From contig CAWCKH010000004.1 of assembly GCA_963796055.1 (NCBI GenBank), positions 2,560,001-2,624,000 on the forward strand: 64,000 bases of DNA, in the 5' to 3' direction. The notes under the pieces are model-generated. The model saw nothing but the letters and a program-made list of their open reading frames with translations, did no database searches and had not been told where the DNA came from. Shown here in pieces: positions 35,729 through 54,907 of this stretch; the stretch's first letter is position 1; each line of letters begins with the position of its first letter. Source of the DNA: an uncultured delta proteobacterium (GTDB lineage Bacteria; Myxococcota; Myxococcia; Myxococcales; Myxococcaceae). Made by a program: the position numbers and the translations under genes.

Positions 35729-37354
35729 TCACTTCGTCGGCTTGGCGGCCGGTTCGTCCTCGACCAGCCGGAACTCGACCCGGCGGTTCTTCGCCCGTCC
35801 GAGCGCGGTGGCGTTGTCGGCGATCGGCCGCTCGAAGCCGTAGCCGGCGCTGAGCAGCCGCTTGCGGGCGATGCCATGCTGGACCAGGTACTCGACCACC
35901 GAGGCGGCGCGCCGGCGCGAGAGGTCGAGGTTGTACGGCGCCGTCCCGCGGTTGTCGGTGTGCCCCTCGACCTGCACGTGCTTCAGCTGCGGGTTCTTGG
36001 AGAGAACGCCCACCACCTCGTCGAGCAGCGGGAAGGACTCGGGCTTGATGATCGCCTTGTCGGTGTCGAAGTGGACGCTGCCGCGCAGCCGGACGCGATC
36101 CGACTCCAGCGTCACCAGCGGACCGGTCACCGGACAGCCGTCGTTCTCGGCCGGGCCGGGCTGATCGGGGCACTTGTCCTCGGGGTCGGGGATGCCGTCC
36201 AGGTCGCGGTCGGGGCATCCGTCGAGCTCCATGGTGCCCGGCTCGCGCGGGCAGCGATCGTCGACGTTGGGGATGCCGTCCTTGTCCCAGTCCAGGTCGG
36301 GGCAGCCGTCGGGTCCGTCGCCGGGCTCGTCCGGGCAGCGGTCCCGCTCGTCCGGCACCCCGTCGTGGTCGCGGTCCTTGAGCGGCACCGGCGGCGGCTC
36401 GGGCTCGACCTCGTAGCGCACCGAGGCGAGCATCCGGAACGCCTCGCGGCCGTAGCCGGCGGTGCTGGCCACGCCCCGCCCCACGGCGACCTCCCCGCCC
36501 CAGTGCTTGCCGAACAGCGTGCGCGCCCCGAGGAGCCACTCCCAGGGCGTGGTGGCGGAGGCGCTGGTGGTCCCGACGTTGCTGGCGAACGGCTGGGAGA
36601 GCGGGGTGGAGAAGGTGGTCTCGACGATGAGCTCGGGTCGCCGGAAGACGCTGCCGGTGGGCAGGGTCCAGATGACGGCGCCGCCGCCGGTGAGCTCGTT
36701 CTCGACGATGAGCTGGAGGAAGCGGGCGGTGGTCCGGTATCGGAGCCCGAGGTTGAGCAGCAGGCGTACCGGGCCGAAGGCGTGCTCGAGGTTGGCCCGC
36801 GGCGCGAAGATGAAGTCCCGTCCGCCGAGGAAGCTGTCGGCGCTCCCGGTGGGGAAGCGCAGCTCGGGGACGATGGCGACGTCGACGGGCCACTTCCAGC
36901 TCGCCGGGGTGAAGAGACGGGGGACGAGGCGGATGTCCCCGAGGCCGCCCGAGACTGGTGTGGACACCGGAGGCCCGAACGCGCCGGCGATGGCCTCGAA
37001 GTTGTCGCCCTGGGCAAAGGTGACCTGGAAGTCGCCGCCAAGCTCGAGGAACGGGAGCAGCGTCCAGGCGCCGAGCAGGTGCCCGTCCACTCGCCAGGGG
37101 ATGAAGTTGCCCTTCTTCTGGTCTCCGTCCCGGTAGGCGAGGATCTGCACGTTCCAGTCCAGGAGCAGCTCAGCGTGCCAGCTGCCGGCCGGGGCCGCCC
37201 GCGCGCCCTCCACGACGAAGGCCGACAGCGACAGCGGACTTGCCTTCTGGGGTACGGCGTCGAACCCGCGCACGAAGGGATCCGGCAGCTGGGCAGCCGC
37301 GGGCGCCGCCAGCAGGATGGCGACGAGTCCGGCCGTGAGCGCGGCGCCCCTCAT
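35729..37354 (-). CDS. Outer-membrane protein: beta-barrel + thrombospondin type-3 repeats + OmpA domain
   Basis: Signal peptide; DRDHDGVPDERDRCP-type repeats; VEGHTD, NLDLSRRRA, NRRVEF. Confidence 0.88.
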   Translation of the reverse strand: MRGAALTAGLVAILLAAPAAAQLPDPFVRGFDAVPQKASPLSLSAFVVEGARAAPAGSWHAELLLDWNVQILAYRDGDQKKGNFIPWRVDGHLLGAWTLLPFLELGGDFQVTFAQGDNFEAIAGAFGPPVSTPVSGGLGDIRLVPRLFTPASWKWPVDVAIVPELRFPTGSADSFLGGRDFIFAPRANLEHAFGPVRLLLNLGLRYRTTARFLQLIVENELTGGGAVIWTLPTGSVFRRPELIVETTFSTPLSQPFASNVGTTSASATTPWEWLLGARTLFGKHWGGEVAVGRGVASTAGYGREAFRMLASVRYEVEPEPPPVPLKDRDHDGVPDERDRCPDEPGDGPDGCPDLDWDKDGIPNVDDRCPREPGTMELDGCPDRDLDGIPDPEDKCPDQPGPAENDGCPVTGPLVTLESDRVRLRGSVHFDTDKAIIKPESFPLLDEVVGVLSKNPQLKHVQVEGHTDNRGTAPYNLDLSRRRAASVVEYLVQHGIARKRLLSAGYGFERPIADNATALGRAKNRRVEFRLVEDEPAAKPTK

Positions 37355-37455
37355 TCCAGCCAAGGGTTACCGCAACTCGACGCACTTCCCGAAAAAACGG
37401 CCACTTGCTTGGTGGGCGTGACACCCACCTCCGGTTGACCCCGGCAGGCCAGCGG

Positions 37456-39189
37456 TTAGTGTGAATGCTGCTGAAGGGGGCGCCCTGGTTTCGACGGGGG
37501 CACAGAAGCCCTTGGACGCGTGCCGAGTGGGCCTGACACTCGTAAATCACGAAGGCAACGACACAAAAGCCAACGACAACGTTGAGCTCGCGCTGGCTGC
37601 TTAAACAGTCCTAGTGCGCGGTCATCCGGGTCTCCGCCCGTGGGCTCGGGAATGACCGTCAGAATGCGGGCTGGCCGTCCGGGAGGGCCCGGACCCTGGA
37701 CGGCGAGACTGTTCCGGGATGGGGTAGATGGAAGGGTGTCCGTGCCCGTCCTCCGCCCGACTCCAAATCGCGGACTACGCACGTAGGGTCTCGGGGTGGA
37801 AGGCTTCCGGACGCGGGTTCGATTCCCGCCGCCTCCATGGTTGTTTTTCGCGTGAAGCCCTCGAAACTCCTCGAGGTCGGTCACCTGCGCGGTCGACTGT
37901 AGTACGGGCTGTAGTAAGAGCTCGACGTTCGCCTCGGGCGCGGTTGGGCTCGGCAGTCGTGCCAGCGGTGGTGTCGGGGCGTCCTCCAAGGCCAGGAGCA
38001 GGACAGTGCTGCAGAGCGATGGCCAGGTGGCGCTGAAGTACCCCCCGCGCGCGTCGCTGTGCTCAGGCGGACCGTGGGTAATCCAGTCGAGGAAGCGCTC
38101 CTGTGCCCCCCTTGCCAGGCAGAGGGTGCGAAACGTCCGGCGGGTGTCGTGGAAGCGGCGGCGACGGACGCCGAGCCGGTCCGAGTCCTCGTGGAAGCGC
38201 TTGAGGGCCTGGCTCGTCGTGCGGTGCTTGGCCTCGCGCGACGGGATGAGCAGGTCCGCCTCGGTGGGGTCTCGGCCGAGCATCCGCTTCCAACCCTGAG
38301 CCCGCCACTCGGCGAGGAGCGCCGCGAGTCGCGGGTGGACCGGGACGTCGCGCGGGTTTTCGGTCTTCACTTCCTTCACCCCGTGCGCCTTGGTGTCGTA
38401 CGAGTAGCCCACCAGGAGCCTGCCCAAGGGCTTCATGGTTGACTGGTAGGCGCTCCAGGTGAGCGCGGAGAGCTCTCCGAATCGCATCCCGGTGAAGAAG
38501 GCCAGCGCGTAGAGGACGCGGCGGTCCTCTGGAATGCGGGTGTCTTCCAAGAAAGCCCGCACCTCGTGGGGCTCGAAGAACGCCGTCTTGCGCCAGAGCG
38601 GATCCTTGTCGCGCTTCTTGGGGAGGAGTCCCGTCTTCCTGCGGAAGGTGCAGGGGTTGGCAGCGACCAGCCCTTCCTCCTCGGCGGCGAAGAACAGGCT
38701 CTTCAACGTGTTGTACACGTGGCGGACGGTTCTCGGGGCGAGCTCGTGCCGCCCGGGGCCGACCCGGTGCTTGAGCTGGATGAGAAGCTCTCGCACGTGG
38801 CTCGACTGGACCTCGGTGAGCCTGAGAGTGCCGAGCAGCGGGAGCACGTGCTTGGACAGCCGGCTCGCCTCGTCGTCGACGGACCGGATGCCCTCGGCGC
38901 GCCGCCCCTCAATCCAGCGCTCGAAGTAGCCGCCCACCGTCAGCTCGGAGGGGCGGAGCCGCGGAAGGCCTCGGGCTCGCACCTTCACCTGCTCCAGGAG
39001 CCGGCGCGCTTCTGCCTCCTGACCAATGGGAAGCCCTGTGGCCGAGTACGTCCAGCGTCCATCAGGCGCCTTGAAGCCAATCCACAGCTTCTGCCCCCTG
39101 CGGTAGACGGTGCCCTTCGCGGTCCTCGTTATCGGTGCACCCCCACTACAGCCGCCGCCTGTCGACGACACGGCGCTGGATGATGTCAC
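37456..39189 (-). CDS. Tyrosine integrase; att site inside the ORF, integrated-state C-terminus read antisense through ssrA (start uncertain)
   Basis: GMRFGEL (R), VKTE (K), FHDTRR (HxxR), THG, GGY (Y); ORF crosses attL in frame (NHGGGGNR). Confidence 0.9.
   Translation of the reverse strand: MTSSSAVSSTGGGCSGGAPITRTAKGTVYRRGQKLWIGFKAPDGRWTYSATGLPIGQEAEARRLLEQVKVRARGLPRLRPSELTVGGYFERWIEGRRAEGIRSVDDEASRLSKHVLPLLGTLRLTEVQSSHVRELLIQLKHRVGPGRHELAPRTVRHVYNTLKSLFFAAEEEGLVAANPCTFRRKTGLLPKKRDKDPLWRKTAFFEPHEVRAFLEDTRIPEDRRVLYALAFFTGMRFGELSALTWSAYQSTMKPLGRLLVGYSYDTKAHGVKEVKTENPRDVPVHPRLAALLAEWRAQGWKRMLGRDPTEADLLIPSREAKHRTTSQALKRFHEDSDRLGVRRRRFHDTRRTFRTLCLARGAQERFLDWITHGPPEHSDARGGYFSATWPSLCSTVLLLALEDAPTPPLARLPSPTAPEANVELLLQPVLQSTAQVTDLEEFRGLHAKNNHGGGGNRTRVRKPSTPRPYVRSPRFGVGRRTGTDTLPSTPSRNSLAVQGPGPPGRPARILTVIPEPTGGDPDDRALGLFKQPARAQRCRWLLCRCLRDLRVSGPLGTRPRASVPPSKPGRPLQQHSH
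37476..37837 (+). ncRNA. ssrA: tmRNA; tag peptide ANDNVELALAA* at 37569-37604
   Basis: 5' GGGGGCG...TTTCGAC; 3' T-arm/acceptor GGTTCGATTCCCGCCGCCTCCA; typical tag ORF ending LAA-TAA. Confidence 0.95.
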
Positions 39190-39505
39190 GGGCCCGTTCC
39201 TCGGTCGTCCTCACAGAGCGCCCGTCGGAGCTCACGGTGAGGAGCAGTTGTTCCAGCTCACGTCGGACGACACGGCGCGTGCGCCGCACGCCGGAGATTC
39301 TGAGGAGGCCTCGGTTCGCCCAGCGGCCGAGCGTGGATTTCGAGACGCCCGCCAGCGCCGCCGCGTCGTCGAGAGACAGCAGTTGGAGCGGGTCGGGTGG
39401 GGTCGTCCGAAGCGCGAGCTCCTCTCGCACCACCTGCCGCATCCGCTCCAGGACGAGCTGAAGGGCGAGCTGGACGGCATCCTCGCTGGGCGGGGCCGGC
39501 GTCAT
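39146..39505 (-). CDS. Excisionase-like HTH protein
   Basis: LLSLDDAAALAGVSKSTLGRWANRGLL (MerR/HTH_17-like); immediately upstream of int. Confidence 0.75.
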   Translation of the reverse strand: MTPAPPSEDAVQLALQLVLERMRQVVREELALRTTPPDPLQLLSLDDAAALAGVSKSTLGRWANRGLLRISGVRRTRRVVRRELEQLLLTVSSDGRSVRTTEERARDIIQRRVVDRRRL

Positions 39506-39609
39506 CGAGGCTAGGAACCTTATTGAGACTCACATGAGACTAACAAAAGACCCGAGCGGCGACAAGGTGGCCCATCGAACGCTGCCGACAGGGGTGAGCC
39601 GGGCGGAGG

Positions 39610-39966
39610 TCAACGCCTGCCTGGCCTGGGGTGAGCGGCGGTCGTCGGGCGAGAGAGCCCGGGGCTCTTGCCCTGCCTGCGCGCACTGGAGGCCAGCTCC
39701 TCGTAGCGCCTATGCAGGAGCACCTGCAGGTACTCGAGGATGTTGAGACGCTGGGCGGCGGCGTCCCGCTTGAGCAGTTCGACGACGTAGGCCGGCAGCC
39801 GGAACCACGTGCGGAGCTGGGAGATGACTTCCCGGACCGCCTCGGCATTGTAGGGGAAGCCGAGGGCGGGACGGAGAACCTCCTGGACGAAGTGGGCGTC
39901 CTCGGGGGGAACCTTGACGTTCAGCTGACGCATCTCCTGGTCTGCAGGCATCGGTGTCTTGGCCAT
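39610..39966 (-). CDS. Putative ribbon-helix-helix DNA-binding protein
   Basis: RQLNVKVPPEDAHFV and TWFRLPAYVVELLKRDAAAQRLNILEYLQVLL resemble RHH beta-strand/helix patterns. Confidence 0.5.
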   Translation of the reverse strand: MAKTPMPADQEMRQLNVKVPPEDAHFVQEVLRPALGFPYNAEAVREVISQLRTWFRLPAYVVELLKRDAAAQRLNILEYLQVLLHRRYEELASSARRQGKSPGLSRPTTAAHPRPGRR

Positions 39967-40159
39967 GAGCAAGAGCATCGCACAAGAGTCCAACATGGGA
40001 TGCACTTAAAACTCGACCGAGGGGTGGCAACGGAGCTCCAGCTCGCGCCTCCCGCCGCGGACCAGGGGCCAGCGGCGTCGTGCCCGGTGGCCTTCTCCGT
40101 CGTCGCTCCGAGTCCCAGCTCGACCAACTTAACTGGCTCCACTGGCGGACAGTCAGCCC

Positions 40160-40275
40160 TGCTCACCCATCTCGCGACTCCGCAGTCACTACCCCGCCGG
40201 CCTTCGGTCACCCATCCCGCGGCTCTGCTGTCACCTATGTCCCCGGTCTGATCTGTCACCCATGTATCCGGTCCG
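40160..40275 (+). repeat. Iteron-like degenerate direct repeats (TCAC(C/T) core, x5)
   Basis: TCAC at 40163, 40186, 40208, 40231, 40256 (spacing 23, 22, 23, 25); consensus GTCACCCAT. Confidence 0.55.
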
Positions 40276-40370
40276 TACCGTCCGTACCCTCGCCCGCCCA
40301 TTCTCCAACTCATACACTCCTTCCCATCTCCTCTTTGCCTTCACACTCATCCGGACTCCACTGATGAGGT

Positions 40371-40519
40371 CTCTTCGCCCTCGCCCACCCCGTCGAATTT
40401 CAGGGGTACCCCCAAGTTTCCCGTCCACGCCCTCATCTCATCGTTGCGAGGGCGTGGACGGGAAACGCAGGGGGACTCCCGATGATGCAGCCGAACCGGG
40501 GTGGGCGAGGGCGGAAGGG
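40371..40519. repeat. Long nested inverted repeat (hairpin)
   Basis: 19-bp perfect inner stem 40416-40434/40448-40466; 15-bp perfect outer stem 40377-40391/40498-40512. Confidence 0.85.
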
Positions 40520-41195
40520 CGCGACATGCCGGACGACGGCTGCTCGAATCCGCCCTGCATCCCGCCCGGGAAGCGGCCCGACAATGCGCCCGATCCAGGA
40601 GCGTCTTGTGGAGCGTATTTCCGAGCGCATTCGAGAGCCATTTCGAGTTCGAAGATGGCGGTCCCGCAATCGATTGCGGGAGCTGGTTTTCAGCGTTCCA
40701 GGGCCTGGAGCAGCGTCCGGAGCTTCCCGGCAACTACGCTGCGCTCGCTGTGACCTCCGCCTTGGGGAGTGACGGAAACGGTCAGACGCCCCCGTCGGGG
40801 CACCGACGCGGTGACCGGCACCTTCACCCTCCTAGGTCTCACCGTGCAGACCGATGCGCTGACCGAGTTCAAGGACTTCCACGGCGACCCATCGATCTCC
40901 AGCACCTCGACGGGCCGGTCGCCGTACGCCGCGCGCTGGGCCGGGCCGGGACGTTGGTGATCGCCTCGCGACTGAGCGAACCGACGACACCCGGATCGAG
41001 ATTCGGGGACCCGCCTCGTCGAAGGATGCGGCCGCGCTCCGCCTGGTCCTCCTGGGGATGCAGGTGAACACGTCCGGAGCGGAATTCGAGGGGTCAAGGA
41101 ACGAGCAGCAAGCCATTTCGGAACCTCGTCACCTCGCTTGCTTCATGCGACCGCACGAACTCCAGTCAGTCGCGAACGGGCCTGGTCTACTCCGT

Positions 41196-41331
41196 AACTA
41201 CGGCGCCCCGCGGGCGGGCGCCGTAGTTGCAGAGCCGCTCGAGGCCGACGACGTCATTCTCGTGAAGCCAGGTGTCGGCGTGGAGCGAGAAGCCCTCGAT
41301 GAAGGCGCGGGGGTGGCCCCGCGGGCGGGCG
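41196..41331 (-). pseudogene. Short IS91/ISCR-type transposase fragment
   Basis: Encodes GFSLHADTWLHENDVVGLERLCNYGA; near-identical to ~50027-50108. Confidence 0.7.
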
Positions 41332-41470
41332 AGGCGGACGCAGCCCGCTCAAAAGGACCGGTGACGATCACCGCGACCAAGGGAACGGTGGCTGGAACGG
41401 CGAGGAGCCGCCCGCTCAGAACGCGGGTTCGCAGTCCGCAACCAGGGCGAGGCCGGGGCAGCCCTGGACG

Positions 41471-41646
41471 CTAGACCCTGGCCCACGAGACGGTGGGGAC
41501 CTGCGCCGAGGCGCTCTGAACGTAGCTGCCATAGAGCGCGCCGGACCCACCGACACCGACCAGAAAGAGGACGATGCCGGCGACGATGAGGCCGAGGCCC
41601 CGGTTCTTGACCGACGACGAGAAGAGCGAAGGGGTGAGGGTGGACA
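41471..41646 (-). CDS. Small single-TM protein (MSTLTPSLFSSSVKNRGLGLIVAGIVLFL...)
   Basis: AAGGAGG Shine-Dalgarno before ATG; hydrophobic helix. Confidence 0.55.
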
Positions 41647-41899
41647 TAACGGCCTCCTTTCGGGTGGCCCCGGGGAGAAGTCCTCGTTGCCAGCCCGCCC
41701 GCCCCTCCTGCATCACCGGGACCACTCGCAAGTCACCGGAAATGCAGAGAAGCCCTCGGGCCGGAGTGACCGGCCGTGCAACACGCTGCATTGAAGCGTG
41801 TCGCGCCGTGCTGCAGGGGCGAAGCCGGTCAGTGGCCGGGACACTCCGAGCCGCCGTGCAGTCCGACGATGGAAGGCGGAGAGCGCCCGGACGAAGAGC

Positions 41900-42065
41900 C
41901 CCAGCACGACAAGTGGTTCAAGAGCGTGAAGCGGGCGACGCTGATGCTCCAGCAGCCGGCGTACCACGCCCAGGCGCGGCACGGGTACCTGCGGGCACCG
42001 AGCCGGTCCGGTACGTCTCGGAGATCCAGACCCGCTACGAGAACTACCTCAAGCTCGTGCCCTGA
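41900..42065 (+). pseudogene. 3' fragment of an MltF-like lytic transglycosylase
   Basis: DKWFKSVKRATLMLQQPAYHAQARHGYLR, frameshift, then GTEPVRYVSEIQTRY. Confidence 0.55.
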
Positions 42066-42193
42066 GCCTGAGCGGCGCAACTGTCATTGGACCCGCTGAT
42101 GAGCGTCATCAGCTGCCATCCTCGCTGTCCGTGGCTCGGCGATTGGCAGAGCTCGGTGGGTCGTTGGAGGACTAAGTTACCCTCCAGCAAGGG

Positions 42194-44710
42194 GTGCGAA
42201 TGCAGCCAGAGCGCCCACCGAGCAGGGACGCACCGACCGAGCTGGAGGCGTCTCCGCAGATGTACGGGACGGAGCCGCTGGCGGCGCCGCTGGCCGCGGG
42301 TCAGCAGCTCGAAGCCGGAGCTCAACTCGAGGGGCGCTTCCGCATCGTCCAGATGCTCGGCCAAGGCGGGATGGGCGACGTCTACGAAGCGGTCGACGTG
42401 GCGCTCGGGACCCGCGTCGCGGTGAAGACGGTCCGCCTCGAACAGGCGGCGAACGAGAACGCGCTCCATCGTTTCCGACGTGAGATCCTCCTGGCCCGGA
42501 AGATCGCTCACCCGAACGTGTGCAAGGTCTTCGAGCTGCACGTCGGCGGATTCGGTGAGCCGCCCCTCTTCCTGAGCATGGAGCTGCTCGAGGGCGAGAC
42601 GCTCGCCCAGCGGCTGCGGAGGGAGGGCCGCCTCGACGAGGGCGTGGCGCGGGGAATCGTCCTGCAGATCGCCTCCGCGCTCGGGGCCGCGCACGCGGAA
42701 GGAGTCGTCCACCGAGATCTCAAGGCGAGCAACGTGATGCTCGTCCCGGACCACGGGGGCCGTCAGCGGGCCGTCGTCACCGACTTCGGCATCGCCCATG
42801 CGGCCGGAGCGCTCTCGGATGCGACGGCGACCCTGGAGGGACCCCTCGGAACGCCGGCGTATATGGCCCCGGAGCAGGTGACGGGCGGAGCGGTGACCCC
42901 GGCGACCGACCTCTACTGCCTCGGCGTGCTCATGTACGAGATCACCACCGGCACGCTCCCCTTCACCGGTGAGAGTCCGAGGGAGATCGCTTACCGGCGC
43001 CTCGGTGCCGAAGCGCCCGACCCGCGCGCCTCGACTCCGGCCCTGAGCAAGCGCTGGGGCAAGGTCGTTCGATGGTGTCTGGCGAGCAATCCCGCGCAGC
43101 GTCCGCAGACCGCCGCGGCCATCCGGCAAGCGCTGGAGGGGAAGGCGCGCCCGCCGCGGCGTCTCTCGCGCCGGCGGCTGGTCGCCATGGGCCTCGCGCT
43201 AGCGGCCGCGGTGTCGGTCGTCCCGCTCGTGGCCCGGCTCCGCTCACTGCGCGCTGCTGCCGCGCTCTCAGCACGACCGGTGGTGGCCGTACAGGCGACC
43301 GGCACCGCCGAACTCGCAAGCGCTCCCGCTGCCCTGCCCTCCGTGGCCGTGCTGCCATTCGCCGACCTCTCGCCCGGGAAGGACCAGGAGTACTTCGCCG
43401 ACGGCGTCGCGGAGGAGATCCTGAGCGCGCTCTCCCACGTCGAGGGCCTGCGCGTCGTCGGCCGCACCTCGTCGTTCTCGTTCAAGGGGAGAAGCGTCCA
43501 GATCCAGGAGATCGGCCGACAGCTCAACGTCCGCGCCGTCCTGGAGGGCAGCGTGCGGCGGGAAGGCGACCGGGTGCGCGTCACCGCCCAGGTGGTCAAC
43601 GTGGCCGACGGTTACCGCGTGTGGTCGGAGAGCTACAGCCGCCAGATCACCGGCATCTTCGAGGTGCAGGACGACATCGCCAAGGCCGTGGTCGAGGCGC
43701 TCAAGGTGAAGCTCGTGCCCGGCAAGGGCCCGGGCGGTGGCGAAGGGCGAGCGACCAACCCGGACTCCTACAGCTACTACTTGTTGGGCCTTCATCACGA
43801 ACGACAAGGAACGCTCGAAGGAATCCGGCGGGCCAGGGCGGCGCTCGAGAAGGCGCTCGCCCTCGACCCCGGCAATGCACCGGCCCAGGCAGCCCTGGCG
43901 ATCGCCATCTTCAACGTCTGGGCGTGGGGCGGGACGAGCACGGCCGCGGAGGTGGAGGACGTCCGGCAGCAGTCGCTGGCCGCGGCCGAGAAGGCGGTCG
44001 CCCTGGCCCCCTCCCTCGCGGACGGGTACGCAGCGCGCGGCTTTCTGCGGGGGGCGTACTTCGACTGGGCGGGCTCACGAGCGGACCTCGACCGCGCCCT
44101 CGCCCTCCGTCCGAACGATTCCCACGCGCTCAATTACCTGGGCGAGTGGATGTCGGTGTTCGGAAGGGTGACGGAATCCATTGCCCTCACGCGCCGGGCG
44201 CTGGAGCTCGATCCTCTGTGGGAGCGCCCCCTGAGTCGCCTCTGCCACCTCTACCTGGCGAGCGGCGAGCTGTCCCTGGCACGGAGCGCCATCGACCACT
44301 GGCTCGAGGTCAACCCCGACCATGCCGACCAAGCCCGCTCCATGGAGGTGCTGCTCCACCTGCTGGAAGGCAACCCCGAAGCGGCGCTCTCCGCCGCCCA
44401 ACGCTTTACCCGCCCGCGCGCCCGCCTGTGGGGCATTGCCCTAGCGGAGAACGATCTGGGTCATGCCGCCGAGTCGAACAAGGCGCTCGAGGAGCTGACC
44501 TCGAAGTTTACGGGCGCCTACCCGCACGGGATTGCGCAAGTATACGCTTGGCGAGGAGATGCCGACCACGCCTTCGAGTGGCTGGAGCGCGCCTGGCGCG
44601 AGCGCGACTCGAATATTGGGCGGATCAAGTTCGACCCGCTCCTGCGCAAGATCCGGGGTGATCCGCGCTACCCGGCGCTGCTGAAGAAGATGAACCTGCC
44701 GGTTGACTGA
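42194..44710 (+). CDS. Ser/Thr kinase - TM - TolB-like domain - TPR repeats
   Basis: LGQGGMGDVY, HRDLKASN, TDFGIA, GTPAYMAPE; SVAVLPFADLSPGKDQEYFADG; TPR-like helices. Confidence 0.92.
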   Translation: MRMQPERPPSRDAPTELEASPQMYGTEPLAAPLAAGQQLEAGAQLEGRFRIVQMLGQGGMGDVYEAVDVALGTRVAVKTVRLEQAANENALHRFRREILLARKIAHPNVCKVFELHVGGFGEPPLFLSMELLEGETLAQRLRREGRLDEGVARGIVLQIASALGAAHAEGVVHRDLKASNVMLVPDHGGRQRAVVTDFGIAHAAGALSDATATLEGPLGTPAYMAPEQVTGGAVTPATDLYCLGVLMYEITTGTLPFTGESPREIAYRRLGAEAPDPRASTPALSKRWGKVVRWCLASNPAQRPQTAAAIRQALEGKARPPRRLSRRRLVAMGLALAAAVSVVPLVARLRSLRAAAALSARPVVAVQATGTAELASAPAALPSVAVLPFADLSPGKDQEYFADGVAEEILSALSHVEGLRVVGRTSSFSFKGRSVQIQEIGRQLNVRAVLEGSVRREGDRVRVTAQVVNVADGYRVWSESYSRQITGIFEVQDDIAKAVVEALKVKLVPGKGPGGGEGRATNPDSYSYYLLGLHHERQGTLEGIRRARAALEKALALDPGNAPAQAALAIAIFNVWAWGGTSTAAEVEDVRQQSLAAAEKAVALAPSLADGYAARGFLRGAYFDWAGSRADLDRALALRPNDSHALNYLGEWMSVFGRVTESIALTRRALELDPLWERPLSRLCHLYLASGELSLARSAIDHWLEVNPDHADQARSMEVLLHLLEGNPEAALSAAQRFTRPRARLWGIALAENDLGHAAESNKALEELTSKFTGAYPHGIAQVYAWRGDADHAFEWLERAWRERDSNIGRIKFDPLLRKIRGDPRYPALLKKMNLPVD

Positions 44711-44771
44711 CTGTGCAAGCGGGCTGATGGGTGACGTTTTAGAGCGGGCACACGGGTAACACTGGCCAGCG

Positions 44772-45065
44772 TCAGCCGTCGTCACGCGTGGCGTCTGGAG
44801 AGCGCGGGAGTCGGATGCGCTCCATCAGAAGGAGCAACTTCAGGAGGGACTGACGAAGCTGCTCCGGGCTCCGCAGCGCCCGCCACCGCGCAGCGACCTC
44901 CGCGAGTGCCATGCTCACCGAGTCGGCCTCGCCAGGGGCCGCTACTTCCGTACTACACGCGGTGCGGCCGAACGCGTGCTCCTGCGCGCTCTGGGGGCAG
45001 CAACCGGGCGCTGTTGCGGGCTTCTGCGCGCACGTGCTCACCGAAGAGTCTTCGCCAGCATGGCT
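44772..45065 (-). other. Detached C-terminal coding segment of the integrase (joined at attP after excision)
   Basis: In frame with the GGA-GGC-GGC-GGG-AAT-CGA codons of the att core; 97 sense codons then TGA at 44772. Confidence 0.75.
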
Positions 45066-45086
45066 TCGATTCCCGCCGCCTCCAAA

Positions 45087-45440
45087 CTACTTGGCGCCGG
45101 AGTCTGCAGAGTTGGCGGACCCGGCCCGTAGCTCCCGCTTGGCTCGTACGGGCGAGCCCCGAATCGTTGCCCAGTATTCCTCGGCAACGTCGTCGATGTG
45201 CACCGGGAATCGCGACCGAAGCCTGTCGGCGCCGTTCCGTTTGCAGCCGCTGATCCAGTACTCCTCGCCCGACTCAACCTCGACGTAGTTACCCCTGATG
45301 CCTGTGCCTCCGAGCGAGCGGAACGACTTGCCACGGTAGTAGAGCGTCCGTCCCGTCTTCGAGAAGGACACGCGGCCGATCCAGGCCTCGCCCGCGCCCG
45401 CCTTCCGCTCGACGTAAAGAATCCTTGGTGATCCCGCCAT
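45087..45440 (-). CDS. Small hypothetical protein (RILYVERK...GRVSFSKTGRTLYY...EEYWISGCK)
   Basis: Clean protein-like sequence; 5' end abuts the IS21 left end. Confidence 0.7.
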   Translation of the reverse strand: MAGSPRILYVERKAGAGEAWIGRVSFSKTGRTLYYRGKSFRSLGGTGIRGNYVEVESGEEYWISGCKRNGADRLRSRFPVHIDDVAEEYWATIRGSPVRAKRELRAGSANSADSGAK

Positions 45441-46460
45441 TCCAAGACCGACCCACACCCTTGCCGCTCGGCCCGTCAGGAGCCGGGCGTCCGCTGGGAG
45501 GGTGCTCATCATGGAAGAGGCCGTCGTCCTCCGCCGCCGGGTGCTCGTGGACCACCACTCGATCCGCCGAGTCGCCCGCGAGACGGGAATCTCGCGCAAC
45601 ACGGTCCGTCGGTACGTGAGGGGAGCGCCGCCCGGTGTCGGCAAGCCACGGGACCTCCGGGGCGCGCCCATCCGCGACCGAGTCGCAGGGCGTGCCCTGG
45701 AGCTGTTCCAGGAGGCCCCGCGCTGGACCGCCGGCGAGCAGAGGCTCACCGCCGCATGCCTCCACCAGCTGCTGCTGCAGGAGGGCCTCGTCGTGGGCTA
45801 CTCCGTCGTCAAGCAGCTGGTGCGGGAGTGGAAGCGGGAGCGGCAGGAAGTCTTTGTCCCGCTCGTCTACCGGCCGGGTGACTTGGCCGAGGTCGACTTC
45901 TTCGAGGTGCTGGTCGACATCGCGGGCGAGCGACGCAAGGCGCACATGTTCCTGCTCGGTTGATGCACTCGGGCCGGGACTTCGCCTGGCTCTACCCGCG
46001 GCAAGACCAGACGTGCTTCCTCGACGGGCACGTCCGGGCGTTCCACCACCTCGGCGTCGTCCCGCACCGGCTCGCGTACGACAATCTCAAGGCCGCCGTC
46101 CGGAAGATGCTGCTCGGCAGCGAGCGCGAGCTGCAGCCGCGCTTTCTGACTCTCGCCGGGCACTACCTCCTCGAGGCCAGCTTCGCCCGGCCCCACACCG
46201 GGCACGACAAGGGCGGCGTCGAGGCTCGAGGGAAGGGCATCCGCTGGCGACGGTGGGCGCAGCGCTGCTGGCGCGGCTCGATGCGGCCCTGCGAGCGCTT
46301 CGAGGTGGAGCGGCAGGCGATGCAGCCGCTCCCCACCGCGCCGTTCGGCGCTGCCCGGTGTGTCCCCGGCGTCTCGGTGTCGAGCAGGAGTCTCGTGAAG
46401 GTCGAGGGTGCCTCGTACTCCGTCTGGTCCTCCTGGGCGCGACGCGACGTCACGGCGACG
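45429..46460 (+). pseudogene. istA: IS21-family element remnant (fragmented istA, no istB)
   Basis: SIRRVARETGISRNTVRRY HTH, AEVDF, YDNLKAAV, HDKGGVE; frameshift near 45960; TG...GCCATTCCAAGACCGACCCAC left-IR-like end. Confidence 0.8.
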
Positions 46461-46470
46461 TGGCGAGCAC

Positions 46471-46805
<335 letters not shown>

Positions 46806-47110
46806 TCCCTCCACAGATCGTTGTGCTTCTGGTGTGCTGCTCGCCAGGCGTGACGCGAAGGGGATCCATCTTCGAGCCGCTCCGCACCGGGTCGGCCACG
46901 CGCGGCGTTGCCCACCGAACCTAGGACCCGCGGGTGCCGAAGCCGGCCCGATTCCGTCCATGCTCGCTCCTCCGGGGGCTGGCCACGAAGACCTCGAGAT
47001 CGCCTTGGCCGCGTCCGACCGGGCCGCGGCGTACCTCTACGGCCGGCCCAGGGTTGCTCGAAGCTCGAGCAACAGAGCGCCGGACGCGACCTCCTCTCAC
47101 CACCGACCGT

Positions 47111-49546
47111 TCATCTGCGGACGCGCTCGCCGAGCTCGGGCCGGGGACGCTCCGAGCAGCCCCGAGCGATCAGGCCACTCCCGATGGCGAGAAGGAGCGC
47201 TCCGACCAGCGCCGCCTGAAGAAACCAGTGCCGCCCGGTTCGACTCTCGATGAGCGCCGCGGCCACGTCCCCGGCACGTTGGAAGCGCCGCCTGGGGTCG
47301 CGGTCGAGACAGCGGAGGATGGTACGACTCCACCGCGGGTCCAGGCCGGGAACGAGCAACTCCGGCCTCGGCGGCGCCTGCTCGACGTGGCAGACGGCCG
47401 TGACCAGCGGCGTCTCGCCGGCGAAGGGCAATCGCCCCGTTACCATCTCGTACATCACCACGCCGAGCGCATAGAGGTCGGTCGCCTGCGAGATCTTGCT
47501 GCCGGTCACCTGCTCGGGTGCCATGTACTCGGGCGTGCCGATGATGCCGGCGCCTTCGGTGATCGCGTCCTCGCCGGGCGCGCCCCGCTGCTCCAGCGCC
47601 CGAGCGACACCGAAGTCGGTGATAACCACTCGCGCCGCGCCATGAGCCTCCTCGCCGCTGTTCGGCACGAGGATGACGTTCGAGCTCTTGAAGTCCCGGT
47701 GGATGACACCCTCGGCGTGCGCGGCGGCGAGCCCGTCGCACATCTGCCGCACCAGGGGCAGCGCTTCGGCAGTCGTCAGCCGCCCCGCCCGGCGGATCCG
47801 CGCGGCAAGTGTTTCACCCTCGAGGAATTCCATCGAGAGAAAGTTGACGCGCGTCCCGCTCGCGGTGGTCGCCTCGTAGAGCTCGTAGACACGGCACACG
47901 CTGTGGTGGCTCACCCGGCGGGCGAGCAGAACCTCTCTCCGAAACCTCTCCATCGCCGCGGCGTCGGGTCGGATTCGTGGTTCCAAGACCTTGAGGGCAA
48001 CTGGCGCGCGGAGCATTGCGTCGTTGGCCTGGTAAACGGCGCCCATGCCCCCTCGGGCGATGAGGCGGAGAACCGTGAACCGCATTCCGAGGACCTCCCC
48101 AACGCGGAATTGCTGCGCGTGATCCGAGCCGGGTGCGGACCTGCAGAGAGCGTCGCTGCCAGAGCCGAGGCCCACGGTTTCGTGTCCGGCGCGCTCGCCC
48201 AGCGCCGTCTCCCCCATCGACTCACCCACTTCGGCCGGTCGCCGACGCCCCCGCCACGGCGGCCCGTCCGTTGGGCCGGGCAAGATGTCGGCCGCGGCAT
48301 CCTCACCTGGGGCTCGCAGCGCACCGGATGTTTGCTTGGCGAGGCCGACCAGGAACAGAGGCCGCCCAGAGTTCGTTTCGAAGCGGCGCATCATGAATTC
48401 CTCGCCCGCCGTTCTGATCGGGCAGAAATCGGGTGGCTGCGCCGCGCCCGGACTCCGTTCACGCGCCCACGCGCGCACCCAGGTCTGAAGCTGCTCGAGC
48501 GCGCCGCTGTGCCGGAGCATGAGCGAGCTACCCACCCGGAGTGCGTCGCCGGAGAGCCGGGAGGCGGCTTCGTCGGTGAGCCAGAGGAGTCTGCCGGCGG
48601 AGTCGAAGAGGAACCATGCTGCGGGCGTCGCTCGGGCAAGAATTGCGAGTGTGTCCTCGAGCTTCCCCACGCCAAGCTGCCGTTGGGTCGACAGCGAACG
48701 GTCGATTCTGGCCCGGATCACCTCGAGTTCATGAAGATCGCGAGCGGTGAACGGCGATTCGTTCGCGGCCCGCGCAGCGCAGACGAATCCGCGCGGCGCC
48801 TTCGCCGTCCCGAGCAGTCCGATGAGCTGCCGTTCGACCGCCATCGGCTGCCAGAAGGTGTTGAACACCTCGCTCCGGTGCGCGGCCTCGATCCGGGATG
48901 TGAGATCGAAGCTCTTCGGCTTGGAGGCGAAGAAGGACGGCAGTGGCATGAACTCGCGATCGAGGTGTTGGAGCAGCCCTGCCCGGGCTCGTCCCTCAGC
49001 CGGACTCAGGCGCGAGCCATTGGCGTAGAAGTCGTCCGCTGAGACGACAGGTCCGGAGATGCGCATGAAGGTCCCCGTCGAGATCCCGATCCGCTCGTCC
49101 ATCGCCCGGGCGATCGCCGAACCCATTGCGGCCGTCGTCTGCGCCTTGTGCAGCGCGTGGGCCAGGTCGTTGATGGCGCGACCCTTGCCGCGTCGGACAT
49201 ACCGGCTCGTGAAGCGCAGAGTCCCTCGAGAAGCGCGCTCAGAGGGCACGGTCTTGCGGGGCCGCACGGAGTCTCCTCTTGCATCGCATTCCCTGCGTCC
49301 CGGCGCCGAAGCACCACTCTGCACCGCGGCGACACCCGAACGCCGCCGGCAACCAGAGGGTCCGGCAATGCTTGCGGCCTGGGCCAAGGCGGGCGCAAGA
49401 CCTGCCGTCGGATTCACTCCGATCAGCACAAAACCCCATGGAACCTCCTTTTGGAGGCCGGCGAGACGGTGAGTTGCATCCCGTAGGCCACCGCGGGCTG
49501 CAACGCCGCCGAGCTCTCTCCGGGGCCGTTCCACTGCGCGCTGCAT
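47111..49546 (-). CDS. GAF/PAS-like sensor domain fused to a Ser/Thr kinase, C-terminally truncated (start uncertain)
   Basis: IARGGMGAVY, HRDFKSSN, TDFGVA, GTPEYMAPE, TM; N-terminal FWQPMAVERQL...FTARDL...WFLFDSAGRLLW. Confidence 0.75.
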   Translation of the reverse strand: MQRAVERPRRELGGVAARGGLRDATHRLAGLQKEVPWGFVLIGVNPTAGLAPALAQAASIAGPSGCRRRSGVAAVQSGASAPGRRECDARGDSVRPRKTVPSERASRGTLRFTSRYVRRGKGRAINDLAHALHKAQTTAAMGSAIARAMDERIGISTGTFMRISGPVVSADDFYANGSRLSPAEGRARAGLLQHLDREFMPLPSFFASKPKSFDLTSRIEAAHRSEVFNTFWQPMAVERQLIGLLGTAKAPRGFVCAARAANESPFTARDLHELEVIRARIDRSLSTQRQLGVGKLEDTLAILARATPAAWFLFDSAGRLLWLTDEAASRLSGDALRVGSSLMLRHSGALEQLQTWVRAWARERSPGAAQPPDFCPIRTAGEEFMMRRFETNSGRPLFLVGLAKQTSGALRAPGEDAAADILPGPTDGPPWRGRRRPAEVGESMGETALGERAGHETVGLGSGSDALCRSAPGSDHAQQFRVGEVLGMRFTVLRLIARGGMGAVYQANDAMLRAPVALKVLEPRIRPDAAAMERFRREVLLARRVSHHSVCRVYELYEATTASGTRVNFLSMEFLEGETLAARIRRAGRLTTAEALPLVRQMCDGLAAAHAEGVIHRDFKSSNVILVPNSGEEAHGAARVVITDFGVARALEQRGAPGEDAITEGAGIIGTPEYMAPEQVTGSKISQATDLYALGVVMYEMVTGRLPFAGETPLVTAVCHVEQAPPRPELLVPGLDPRWSRTILRCLDRDPRRRFQRAGDVAAALIESRTGRHWFLQAALVGALLLAIGSGLIARGCSERPRPELGERVRR

Positions 49547-49616
49547 GGCGGATGTGGATCCTCCATCCTGCTACCTGCGCGCCGTAAGCCCCTGGAGCGC
49601 GGCTGCAGGAATTCAG

Positions 49617-50220
49617 AGGTCCAAGGAAGAACAAACGGGGCTTTCGTGGCGGAGGCCCGTGCAGGGGACCCGAGTCGCCGGGCCGGAGGGGGCAGGACGA
49701 GGCTGCCGGAAAGGGCTCGGCGGAGGTGGTGACCCGTCGGAGGGTAGAGCAGTCCCGGGGCGGTGGTCAGGCCGGGGCGAGTCTCGAACGTCGGACGGCA
49801 CTCACCAGAGGCCGAGCTGGGGCGGGGAGGTGGCCGGGGCAAGGGGAAGCGGCGTAGCGGACGCGGGTTGGCCCTGGGGGCGGGACGAGCGTGGCCACCG
49901 GGGCGGAGGAAGGCCACCGGAGCCAGGACGAGGTGCGTCTCTCCGGTGGGGGAGGCCCGCTTCAGCCGGTAGGCGAGCCGGCCGTCAGGCAAGGCCGAGA
50001 GCCGCTCCAGCGACACGGGCCCGTGGGCGCCGTAGTTGCACAGCTGCTCGAGGCCGACGACGTCATTCTCGTGAAGCCAGGTGTCGGCGTGGAGCGAGAA
50101 GCCCTCGACGAAGGCACAGCGGCGGGCAGACCGGCGCGCGGGAGAACGCGGCCTGCTCCGTGGCACCCGGATGCCTTCGAGCTGGAGGACATCGAGCGCT
50201 CCGGCCCGAAGCGCCGGCAT
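49617..50220 (-). mobile_element. IS91/ISCR-like transposase remnant with oriIS-like end, copy A
   Basis: GFSLHAD...LEQLCNYGAHGPVSLERL...LAYRLKR; internal deletion; minus-strand end CGTTTGTTCTTCCTTGGAC. Confidence 0.72.
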
Positions 50221-50250
50221 TCCCGATACGCGGGTGAACCTTCCTGTCGC

Positions 50251-51339
50251 CTAGTTGTACAGCTCCGCGCTCGCGAGCCCCCCCGGCTGCCCCCCGGCGA
50301 CGAGCACTTTCCCGCTGGGTAACAACGTTGCCGTGTGAAACGCCCGCGCCGTAGCGAGGCTGCCGGTGGCCGTGAACGTTCCTGTGGCGGGGTCGTACAG
50401 CTCCGCGCTGGCGAGGTAGCCCTGGTCCTTACCTCCAGCGATAAGTACCTTCCCGCTGGGCAGCAGCGCCGCCGTGTGACCGTACCGGGCCGTGGCCATG
50501 CTCCCGGTGGCCGTGAACGTCCCCGTCGCTGGGTCGTACAGCTCTGCGCTCGCAAAGTCCGAGCTCGGAAAGGAGTTCAAGTCAAATCCTCCTGCGATGA
50601 GCACCTTCCCGCTGGGCAGCAACGTCGCCGTGTGACTGGCGCGCGCCGTGGCCAGGCTCCCCGTTGGCGTGAACTTCCCTGTGGCCGGGTCGTACAGCTC
50701 GGCGCTGGTGTCGACTCCGCCTGCCACCAGCACCCTACCGTTGGGCAGCAACGTCGCCGTGTGACTGGCGCGCGCCATGGCCAGGGTCCCCGTGGGCGTG
50801 AACTTCCCTGTGGCCGGGTCGTACAGCTCGGCGCTGGTGTCGACTCCGCCTGCCACCAGCACCTTCCCGTTGGGCAGCAACGTCGCCGTGTGCTCGTACC
50901 GGGCCGTGGCCATGCTCCCGGTGGACGTGAACGCCCCCGTCGCTGGGTCGTACAGCTCTGCGCTCGCGAGCGGACTCCCCTGGTTCCCACCCGCGATGAG
51001 CACCTTGCCGTTTGTCAGCAACGTCGCCGTGGGATGTTCCCGCGCCGTGGCCAGGTTCCCCGTGAGCGTGAACGTCCCTGTGGCCGGGTCGTACAGCTCT
51101 GCGCTCGCGAGGTAGCCCTGGGGGCCGGAATAGCCTCCGGCGATGAGTACCTTCCCGCTGGGCAGCAACGTCGCCGTGGGGACAAAGCGCCCTGTGGCCA
51201 GGCTCCCCGTGGAGGCAAACGTCCCTGCGGCGGGAGGCGGAGGCGCTTCCGAGCTTGACGAGCCGCAATGCGTGGTCCCGAGCGCAAGACCAACCACCAC
51301 AGCAACGACGAACTGCCGATTCGCGCGATGACGGAGCAT
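50251..51339 (-). CDS. Seven-bladed Kelch-repeat lipoprotein
   Basis: Signal peptide ending THC; seven repeats of [16 protein letters not shown]...SAELYDP. Confidence 0.9.
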
Positions 51340-51589
51340 GGCAACCTCCCTCGTGTCGCACTAGAACCTGCATTTCTTGAGCCGATTACACGGCCTAGCT
51401 CGTCGTCACCCGTCCGATTTCATGCGCTCGTGCTGCGTTCGCTGATGCACGAAACGCAGTTCGTGCGTCCGCGCGGGGCGGAGCACCGTCAGAGCGCCGA
51501 GCATCAGCACCATCGCGGCGAGCCTCGTCGGACGACCTCCATCAGCGCGGGCGAGGGAGGGCGACAGTCTGCCAGCGCCTCCGCCGGTA

Positions 51590-51945
51590 AGGTCCAAGGA
51601 AGAACAAACGGGGCTTTCGTGGCGGAGGCCCGGGCAGGGGACCCGAGTCGCCGGGCCGGAGGGGGCAGGACGAGGCTGCCGGAAAGGGCTCGGCGGAGGT
51701 GGTGACCCGTCGGAGGGTAGAGCAGTCCCGGGGCGGTGGTCAGGCCGGGGCGAGTCTCGAACGTCGGACGGCACTCACCAGAGGCCGAGCTGGGGCGGGG
51801 AAGTGGCCGGGGCAAGGGGAAGCGGCCTGGAGGGGAGCCGCAAGTGCTTGAGGATGGTCTGGGCCGTCGAGGAACGGAGAACGACTGCCACGACGCGGCA
51901 GGTGCCCCCGCAGCGAGGGCAGGCGAGGACGTCGCGCCCTCGCTG
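51590..51945 (-). mobile_element. IS91/ISCR-like transposase 3' end with oriIS-like end, copy B
   Basis: DVLACPRCGG...ILKHLRLP...PPQLGLW*; 51590-51826 matches 49617-49853 with 2 mismatches seen. Confidence 0.72.
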
Positions 51946-51977
51946 GATCGCCGTGGAATAGCTCGGTCCCTCAAGGT

Positions 51978-52677
51978 TCAGAGGAGCGGAGACAGAATCC
52001 CGCTGAAGACGTCGCTCCAGGCATGGGACAACATGCCCGGGCGGAGGCTGCGACGCCACCAGGCCAATAAACCGTAGAGCAGCCCCAGGGCCGTGATGGT
52101 CACCACCTGCCTCCCTCCCTGGTACCCGTGAGAGATGCCGAAGACGGCGGCCTGCGCCAGGGCGGCGACCAGGGCGCTCCGGCTGAAGGCATGGAACTGA
52201 CGCTGGAGATAGCCCCGAAAGACCAACTCCGAGTACCCAGAGCCCGATTTCAAGGGCTCCTTTCGGCAAGAGGACGGAGATGGACCTGGCGGTGTCGGGG
52301 CCAAGCAGGAGGTGCATGAGCCAGGCGGTCGCCTCGAAGACTCCCCAAAAGAGGACGGCGATGACGAGATCGCGCATCACGTCGCGAAGCCGGTTCCAGT
52401 GCCCGCTCACCAGGTCGCGCAAGCGAGTTCGTCGCCGTATTCCCAGCCAGACGTAGCCCACCAGCGCCCACTCGAAGACCAGGGTCGAGAGGTAGATGGC
52501 GATCAGCCCCTGGTGCTGCGCAATCACCCCCGGAGCCGAGGAAGACCGGCTCTGCAGGCGCGCGCCGCCGAGGGCGAGCAAGAGGAGGATGGCTACCAGC
52601 AGCACAGTGTGCCACAGGGGCGCGACCTGGCTGGGGGGCGGGGTCACGACACGAGGAACCGATGGAGCGGTCGTCAT
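51978..52677 (-). pseudogene. CPBP (CAAX/Abi) intramembrane protease, frameshifted
   Basis: N-terminal TMs in one frame; (E)LVFRGYLQ, FGISHGYQG and HAWSD in another; break near 52230. Confidence 0.75.
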
Positions 52678-52824
52678 GGTCCCTCCTCATGTGCCTTGGC
52701 GCCGCGCGCATCGCGGGTGAGCGACTGCAGCGTCTCGTCTGATACAGGAGATGCTGCGTGCTGATCAGCGGGTTCGATTCCGGCCGCCTCCACAAGGTAT
52801 TGGCAGATCGGCCGGTCCTCTCGG

Positions 52825-54424: not shown

Positions 54425-54907
54425 TCACTGATCGGCGACCAGCCCGAGCGCGCGCTCCACGGCCTCGGCCGGAGTGCTCGCCCGGACGATCTCCGTTGCC
54501 GGCACGCCTCGCCTCGCCAGCTCCCAGGTGTCGATGCCCACCACGGGTTTGCCGGTCTTCAGCGCGAGCGCTATCTCCGAGAGCGTCCCGAACTCGCCGC
54601 CGATGGCGATGAGCACGTCGGCGGTGCGGACCACGAGCGCGTTCCGTGCCTCGCCGAGCCCGGTGGGTATCGCGACGTCGACCCACGGATTCGCCGCGCG
54701 CCGGTCGAGCCCCGGGAGGATGCCGACCGTCCTGCCGCCGGCGGCCTTCGCCCCCCGGCAGGCCGCCTCCATCACCCCGCCCAGACCGCCGCAGACCACG
54801 AGCGCGCCTCGGGCGGCGACGAGACGTCCCACCTCCTCCGCGGCGAGGTCGAGCCGCCGCTCGCTGGCGCCGCTGCCCACCACCGCGACGTACAGGTCAG
54901 GTGTCAT
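54425..54907 (-). CDS. TIGR00725 / LOG-family Rossmann-fold nucleotide-binding protein
   Basis: VCGGLGGVMEAACRGA, ARNALVV, GGEFGTLSEIALAL. Confidence 0.88.
   Translation of the reverse strand: MTPDLYVAVVGSGASERRLDLAAEEVGRLVAARGALVVCGGLGGVMEAACRGAKAAGGRTVGILPGLDRRAANPWVDVAIPTGLGEARNALVVRTADVLIAIGGEFGTLSEIALALKTGKPVVGIDTWELARRGVPATEIVRASTPAEAVERALGLVADQ

Follow-up and report, generated by a model that had tools for sequence, protein, structure and literature searches.

What happens to an integrase whose gene contains its own attachment site, so that integration exchanges the end of the protein? The question is raised by a 7,247-bp island at the transfer-messenger RNA (tmRNA) gene ssrA of an uncultured delta proteobacterium of the Myxococcaceae (assembly GCA_963796055.1, contig CAWCKH010000004.1). 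The window analysed is the whole 64,000-nucleotide stretch from 2,560,001 to 2,624,000 of that contig, and positions below count from its first letter. The island is a further member of an arrangement published for myxophage Mx8, whose attP lies inside int (PMC6070905) and whose integration replaces 112 C-terminal residues of the integrase by 13, giving a less active enzyme (PMC4701971). The principle itself is already known, in print since 1996-1999 as cited in PMC6070905, PMC4701971 and PMC4383910. We establish here the anatomy of the locus, its homology to Mx8, the constraint on the tail that the circle would regain, and the family-wide extent of the arrangement, and we propose what the exchange may do.

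The int open reading frame (ORF; 37456-39189, minus strand) has 577 codons. Its catalytic part and linker (37838-39189; PF00589, phrog_1) hold the catalytic R236, K275, H347/R350, H372 and Y384, all upstream of the att core, with R, K, R, H and Y invariant in the family alignment. The frame then crosses the 20-bp attL core (37818-37837, plus strand), which forms the final 20 bases of the target gene ssrA (37476-37837, plus strand; ARAGORN, tag end ANDNVELALAA) and is read on the minus strand as G-G-G-G-N-R, amino acids 452-457. It continues for 120 sense codons antisense through ssrA (37456-37817, minus strand), to a TAA at 37456-37458. At attR an exact copy of the core (45065-45084, plus strand), which sets the element length, is followed in the same register by 97 sense codons (44772-45064, minus strand) ending in TGA at 44772-44774: a linker of ~45 codons and then a predicted two-helix hairpin (~44811-44936). 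An earlier note on this DNA had described this crossing of the core, with both tails and the catalytic residues upstream, and its description is exact.

The note had also likened the locus to Mx8, and the likeness amounts to homology. The integrase is 40.6% identical to Mx8 Int over residues 1-379 of 381 (99% of the core, E 8e-65); among the phage matches listed, only four Mx8 records cover at least 80% of the query core. In a tree, the 119 family sequences group together, separate from four distant integrases (support 0.83). Mx8 Int has 112 residues after the core peptide and four Mx8-like integrated copies (L001, L008, L056, L082) have 13, counts that agree with the published Mx8 numbers and so support the same arrangement. 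Several features of the Mx8 type are present at ssrA as well: a homologous tyrosine integrase, an att core after the catalytic residues, a helix-turn-helix (HTH) excisionase-like gene upstream, and an in-frame segment past attR.

Does either tail matter? The open-frame length of either one alone does not exceed chance. At ~69% G+C, base shuffling gives probabilities of 0.14 for 97 open codons and 0.057 for 120, and random contig positions, genes included, give 0.45 and 0.40. The attP-form tail has a closer comparison in a related island (L017; 8,057 bp, 88% Int identity), with DNA homology running from the core to ~8 nt past the stop and one 12-nt in-frame indel. The ratio of nonsynonymous to synonymous substitution rates (dN/dS) is 0.46 over the tail, 0.75 in the linker and 0.21 in the helical part; the other same-strand frames give 1.64 and 1.31, and the mirror frame, which shares third positions, gives 0.37. 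Mismatches at the three codon positions number 1/5/11 in the helical part and 10/6/39 in the int core. This pattern indicates that the 97-codon tail is under coding constraint. The tail is 19% diverged against 5% for the int core, which suggests mosaic ends or exchange of tails between elements.

In most family tails the final segment is rich in Ala and Leu and contains a short turn. AlphaFold gives the window tail as two helices (predicted local distance difference test ~90), and its model of a naturally joined form (P0036) shows a disordered linker of 80 residues and then an ordered hairpin; a homodimer prediction for the tail scored 0.34, below the 0.42 mark, and is not used as evidence either way. 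A profile of eight tails from other elements, a set chosen by eye, ranks the window tail first among 72,590 genome segments (E 0.016). The tail had no match in Pfam or PHROGs (at most 3 of 18 members give weak matches like the tetratricopeptide repeat, TPR), no usable match in the ESM Atlas and no fold match in the PDB at E 0.001 or better, and a search for longer proteins containing it returned one match, a frameshifted orphan attR. Joined forms occur naturally (L044, P0024, P0030, P0035, P0036, P0042); one of them, carried on a contig of 8.9 kb that has a terminal repeat of 135 nt (L044), is likely the free circle of a family member. The claim that excision would build a different integrase is thus borne out, in that dN/dS, the family tails and the profile all mark the attP tail as a real conserved segment.

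Reading across att is the family norm. The survey took in 147 sequences including the window, after removal of 29 duplicates, merged pieces and ssrA-only loci; part of its loci were chosen from ~100 places by match length and contig size. The catalytic end was covered at 123 distinct loci, 83 of them with an antisense tRNA or tmRNA gene (tDNA) within 450 nt, and the ORF enters the tDNA in 72 of the 83. At least 13 kinds of tDNA target occur in the clade with this arrangement. The earlier note had set the tmRNA target apart from the tRNA gene of Mx8; this distinction fades, as 17 of 19 tmRNA-adjacent homologues cross the site, and the tmRNA-targeting members are spread over eight separate tree groups. 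The attR could be located for 20 of the 72 crossing loci (flanks were mostly 10-20 kb). In 18 of these 20 closed elements the attP tail has 76-117 codons and ends in a similar segment, and control frames reach at least 76 codons in 6 of 40 cases (Fisher p 2e-8, a value overstated since kin are not independent). The median attL tail is 21 codons long, and 5 of 72 loci reach at least 76.

We put a probability of about 0.65 on the following reading. On the free circle, int would code for the catalytic core, a long linker and the conserved predicted hairpin, and by analogy with Mx8 this hairpin-bearing form would be the efficient integration enzyme, the hairpin likely making a protein-protein contact that aids synapsis of attP with attB. 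Integration would strip the hairpin in one step, leaving the same core with an antisense ssrA tail; this enzyme would be weaker but could still carry out excision together with the excisionase Xis. The antisense tail itself would likely be functionless, its length set by the first stop that the host gene happens to hold. A wider proposal, made tentatively and at somewhat less than even odds, is that across this large myxobacterial clade the lost part is a single helical-hairpin module that gives a tyrosine recombinase a directionality switch of its own: it would drive integration on the circle, be left behind at attR, be exchangeable between array neighbours, and sometimes be permanently fused. 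The candidate fusion (L125; G347:C5, ~3226500-3226700) has the hairpin ~20 residues past the catalytic domain, with no tDNA found nearby, and is possibly a permanently 'on' form. Separately, a 48.6-kb element at tRNA-Asp (L166-L167 with L082, in G024) has an attP tail that by eye resembles the Mx8 tail, with C-x-x-C near its end, and by that impression would be a second tail subtype.

Several observations weigh against the proposed role of the hairpin. (i) The dN/dS values come from a single sequence pair, the window and L017. (ii) A broad profile of 22 tails ranks the window tail 311th of the 72,590 segments, and a profile of 13 tails gives it 9.2 bits with the best decoy at 13.9. Pairwise BLASTP matches the tail with none of L163, P0030 and P0036 and gives E 0.13 with Mx8. 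(iii) The Mx8 tail scores 4.3 bits against the 13-tail profile and -2.8 bits against the 22-tail profile, which is background, and may not be the same module as the hairpin. (iv) The note had named homologues that stop before the core as evidence against it, and alongside the 72 that cross there are 11 of 83 that do stop before att; among the 20 attP tails, two have a length of just 39 and 49 codons. The tail is therefore dispensable in some lineages. (v) The codon at the family start of int is ATA here, and L017 int lacks 1 nt at codon 175, so either copy may be decaying.

The last point bears on a separate explanation, which concerns this copy apart from the family mechanism: that it is a resting relic no longer excising. 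We take this as a serious possibility, though our expectation leans the other way. The ATA (39130-39132, minus strand), which the earlier note had missed, stands at the family start position and is confirmed by exact contigs from runs X1 and X2 of one study, and relatives have ATG there (L017, P0001 and two contigs of run X14, the latter compared over 37300-39600); the neighbouring array member described below has no integrase that could be found, and orphan tails decayed by frameshift exist elsewhere (P0074, L174). Yet the ORF, catalytic residues, xis, both cores and arm-like repeats are all intact, and an in-frame GTG 19 codons upstream (39187-39189) could be an alternative start, much as Mx8 int is also annotated with two; L017 does not retain that frame. 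We found no attP or attB joint over 37200-45600 in runs X1, X2, X3 and X5, where contigs are fragmentary, depth is 2-6 and all come from one study; a joint missing from such shallow contig sets is no evidence of absence.

A second explanation accepts the exchange and has it act through protein stability: the hairpin form would be stable and the attL form degraded, and the integrase level would drop after integration. Non-polar C-terminal ends favour proteolysis, and many of the attL forms have small non-polar residues at their end (PPA in 7, LRA in 5, LPA in 2 and PAV in 2 of 72), while four close attP tails (the window, L017, L173, P0074) end acidic. However, the window attL form ends in H-S-H, which is not degron-like; the ends of attL forms are dictated by the target tDNA; and a folded 40-residue hairpin exceeds what masking an end would need. 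We consider this route unlikely.

Less likely again is that the hairpin works outside the integrase, either as a small protein of its own, translated from an internal start and serving for example as a directionality factor, or as a region kept only for the att-arm DNA. In its favour, both the window and L017 have an in-frame GTG two codons ahead of the ATG of the helical part, with a GAGG 8 nt in front of that GTG; the linker has a dN/dS of 0.75 and carries an arm-like repeat. Against it stand a linker that stays open from the core for at least 45 codons in 18 of 20 elements and in 8 of 40 control frames, and the natural full-length fusions. In addition, the internal ATG is ACG in L173, and the third-position bias of the helical part speaks against a DNA-only role.

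The earlier note also stressed that the integrated form reads antisense through the whole tmRNA. That this read-through is a designed feature is not supported: the frame is a property of the host gene, and the median attL tail of the family is short. Across nine near-full-length ssrA loci of the genus, the antisense register is open over 124 codons in five and has stops in four, and the open ones include two genomes (G006, G007) with no match to this integrase and none beside ssrA. In L017 one substitution stops the tail after 16 codons. This stop and the open frame in G006 and G007 make the 120 codons likely due to chance, and the tail probably filler. It is very improbable that selection maintains this tail, or an antisense tmRNA of full length, for the switch: P0037 and P0065 of the same group also read through the whole gene, and int points at ssrA with no terminator-like site found between them by our scan, but P0001 stops after 72 codons, the attL tails of 16 other tmRNA-crossing loci have 12-58, and the 120 codons have no Pfam match. 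Antisense tmRNA is possible for any int gene that points at ssrA. No sigma-70-like promoter was found, a result that is uninformative at 68% G+C.

The present analysis makes a modest but practical addition: it shows that the arrangement is a rule in its clade, across these kinds of target, and singles out the 40-residue hairpin as the part to mutate when asking for the role of the removed tail. Integrases of this clade that are taken from genomes to serve as tools need to be reconstructed across the attP junction; gene callers append to them long antisense-tDNA tails that are likely meaningless.

Between the first two cores the island holds int, the excisionase-like gene, small ORFs and a cargo gene. 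The HTH gene (39146-39505, minus strand; HTH_17, phrog_66, Mx8 annotation) lies directly upstream of int like uoi in Mx8. A 131-codon ORF without family match (39610-40005, minus strand) falls within a block common to L017, which shares 37720-40508 and 44766-45084 with the window and not the cargo, a Ser/Thr kinase with TPR repeats (42194-44710, plus strand). L017 also shares a stretch that looks non-coding (40035-40500). It contains short direct repeats as well as an inverted repeat of 35 nt (40400-40482) and may be an origin or have a regulatory role. Two direct TGTAGTA repeats (37898-37917, plus strand) are likely arm-type Int sites, and a similar repeat pair adjoins ssrA in L066; an inverted copy (44950-44957, minus strand) would link this attR with the integrase arm on the attL side. 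Two more genus members have decayed remnants of int and of this attL arm beside ssrA (L099 and L100, in G003 and G010). With an intact tDNA, a displaced same-orientation 3' fragment and an integrase between them, the element is a tDNA-targeting island as Islander defines these (PMC4383910). No phage structural family was found among the ORFs scanned in the 7,247 bp, and in that respect the element is not an Mx8-like prophage.

The insertions at ssrA form a tandem array, a point that the earlier note missed. A third core copy with one mismatch (52768-52792, plus strand), which falls in the T-stem, closes a second member (45085-52792). This member has no in-register tail, the register after the third core being open for just two codons, and no integrase was found in it (the genome has one strong integrase match). 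Genes 3' of ssrA in two genus members match 54437-54893 of the window, and therefore host sequence resumes beyond the third core. The shared block with L017 ends at the equivalent of 45084, which therefore fixes attR there; the third core was considered as the true attR and rejected for its two in-register codons, its want of an arm-like repeat and this L017 boundary. The second member holds transposase remnants (including a Y2_Tnp match, and one that we take to be IS21-like), a second Ser/Thr kinase and a Kelch-repeat gene. Repeated remnants near the Y2_Tnp-like fragment (41216-41331 and 50025-50140, 89% alike; 49617-49860 and 51590-51833, 98% alike) occur in both array members. Three other loci (L046, L070, L124) are tandem arrays that contain either another att copy or an additional hairpin tail, the latter an orphan.

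Our literature search, which left most subscription journals uncovered, returned no paper that describes an Mx8-type integrase targeting tmRNA, nor one that describes a conserved hairpin tail. Among known systems Mx8 is closest: the xis-int order is the same; att lies inside int, 60 codons past the catalytic Tyr in Mx8 and 68 here; the attP form has 533 aa in Mx8 and 535 here counted from the family start; and the catalytic residues are retained on integration (PMC6070905, PMC4701971). Unlike Mx8, which targets a tRNA gene, the element here targets the 3' end of ssrA, is a cargo island of 7.2 kb in which no phage structural genes were seen, has an integrated form that is longer (558 aa) rather than shorter, and carries a short hairpin tail without significant match to that of Mx8. 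A similar principle has been shown for Mx9, according to a review (PMC6070905); Mx9 is absent from the best 15 of our 303 phage matches. The serine integrases of streptococcal rumA integrative and conjugative elements likewise have att inside the integrase gene, with excision altering the C-terminus (PMC4701971), but belong to another recombinase class and enter a protein-coding target. Islander makes an explicit exception for integrases such as that of Mx8 (PMC4383910). SSV-type archaeal integrases also carry att within int (PMC5861418, PMC4383910). In their case the gene is described as interrupted by integration, whereas here the promoter side keeps all catalytic residues and the exchange affects an accessory tail alone.

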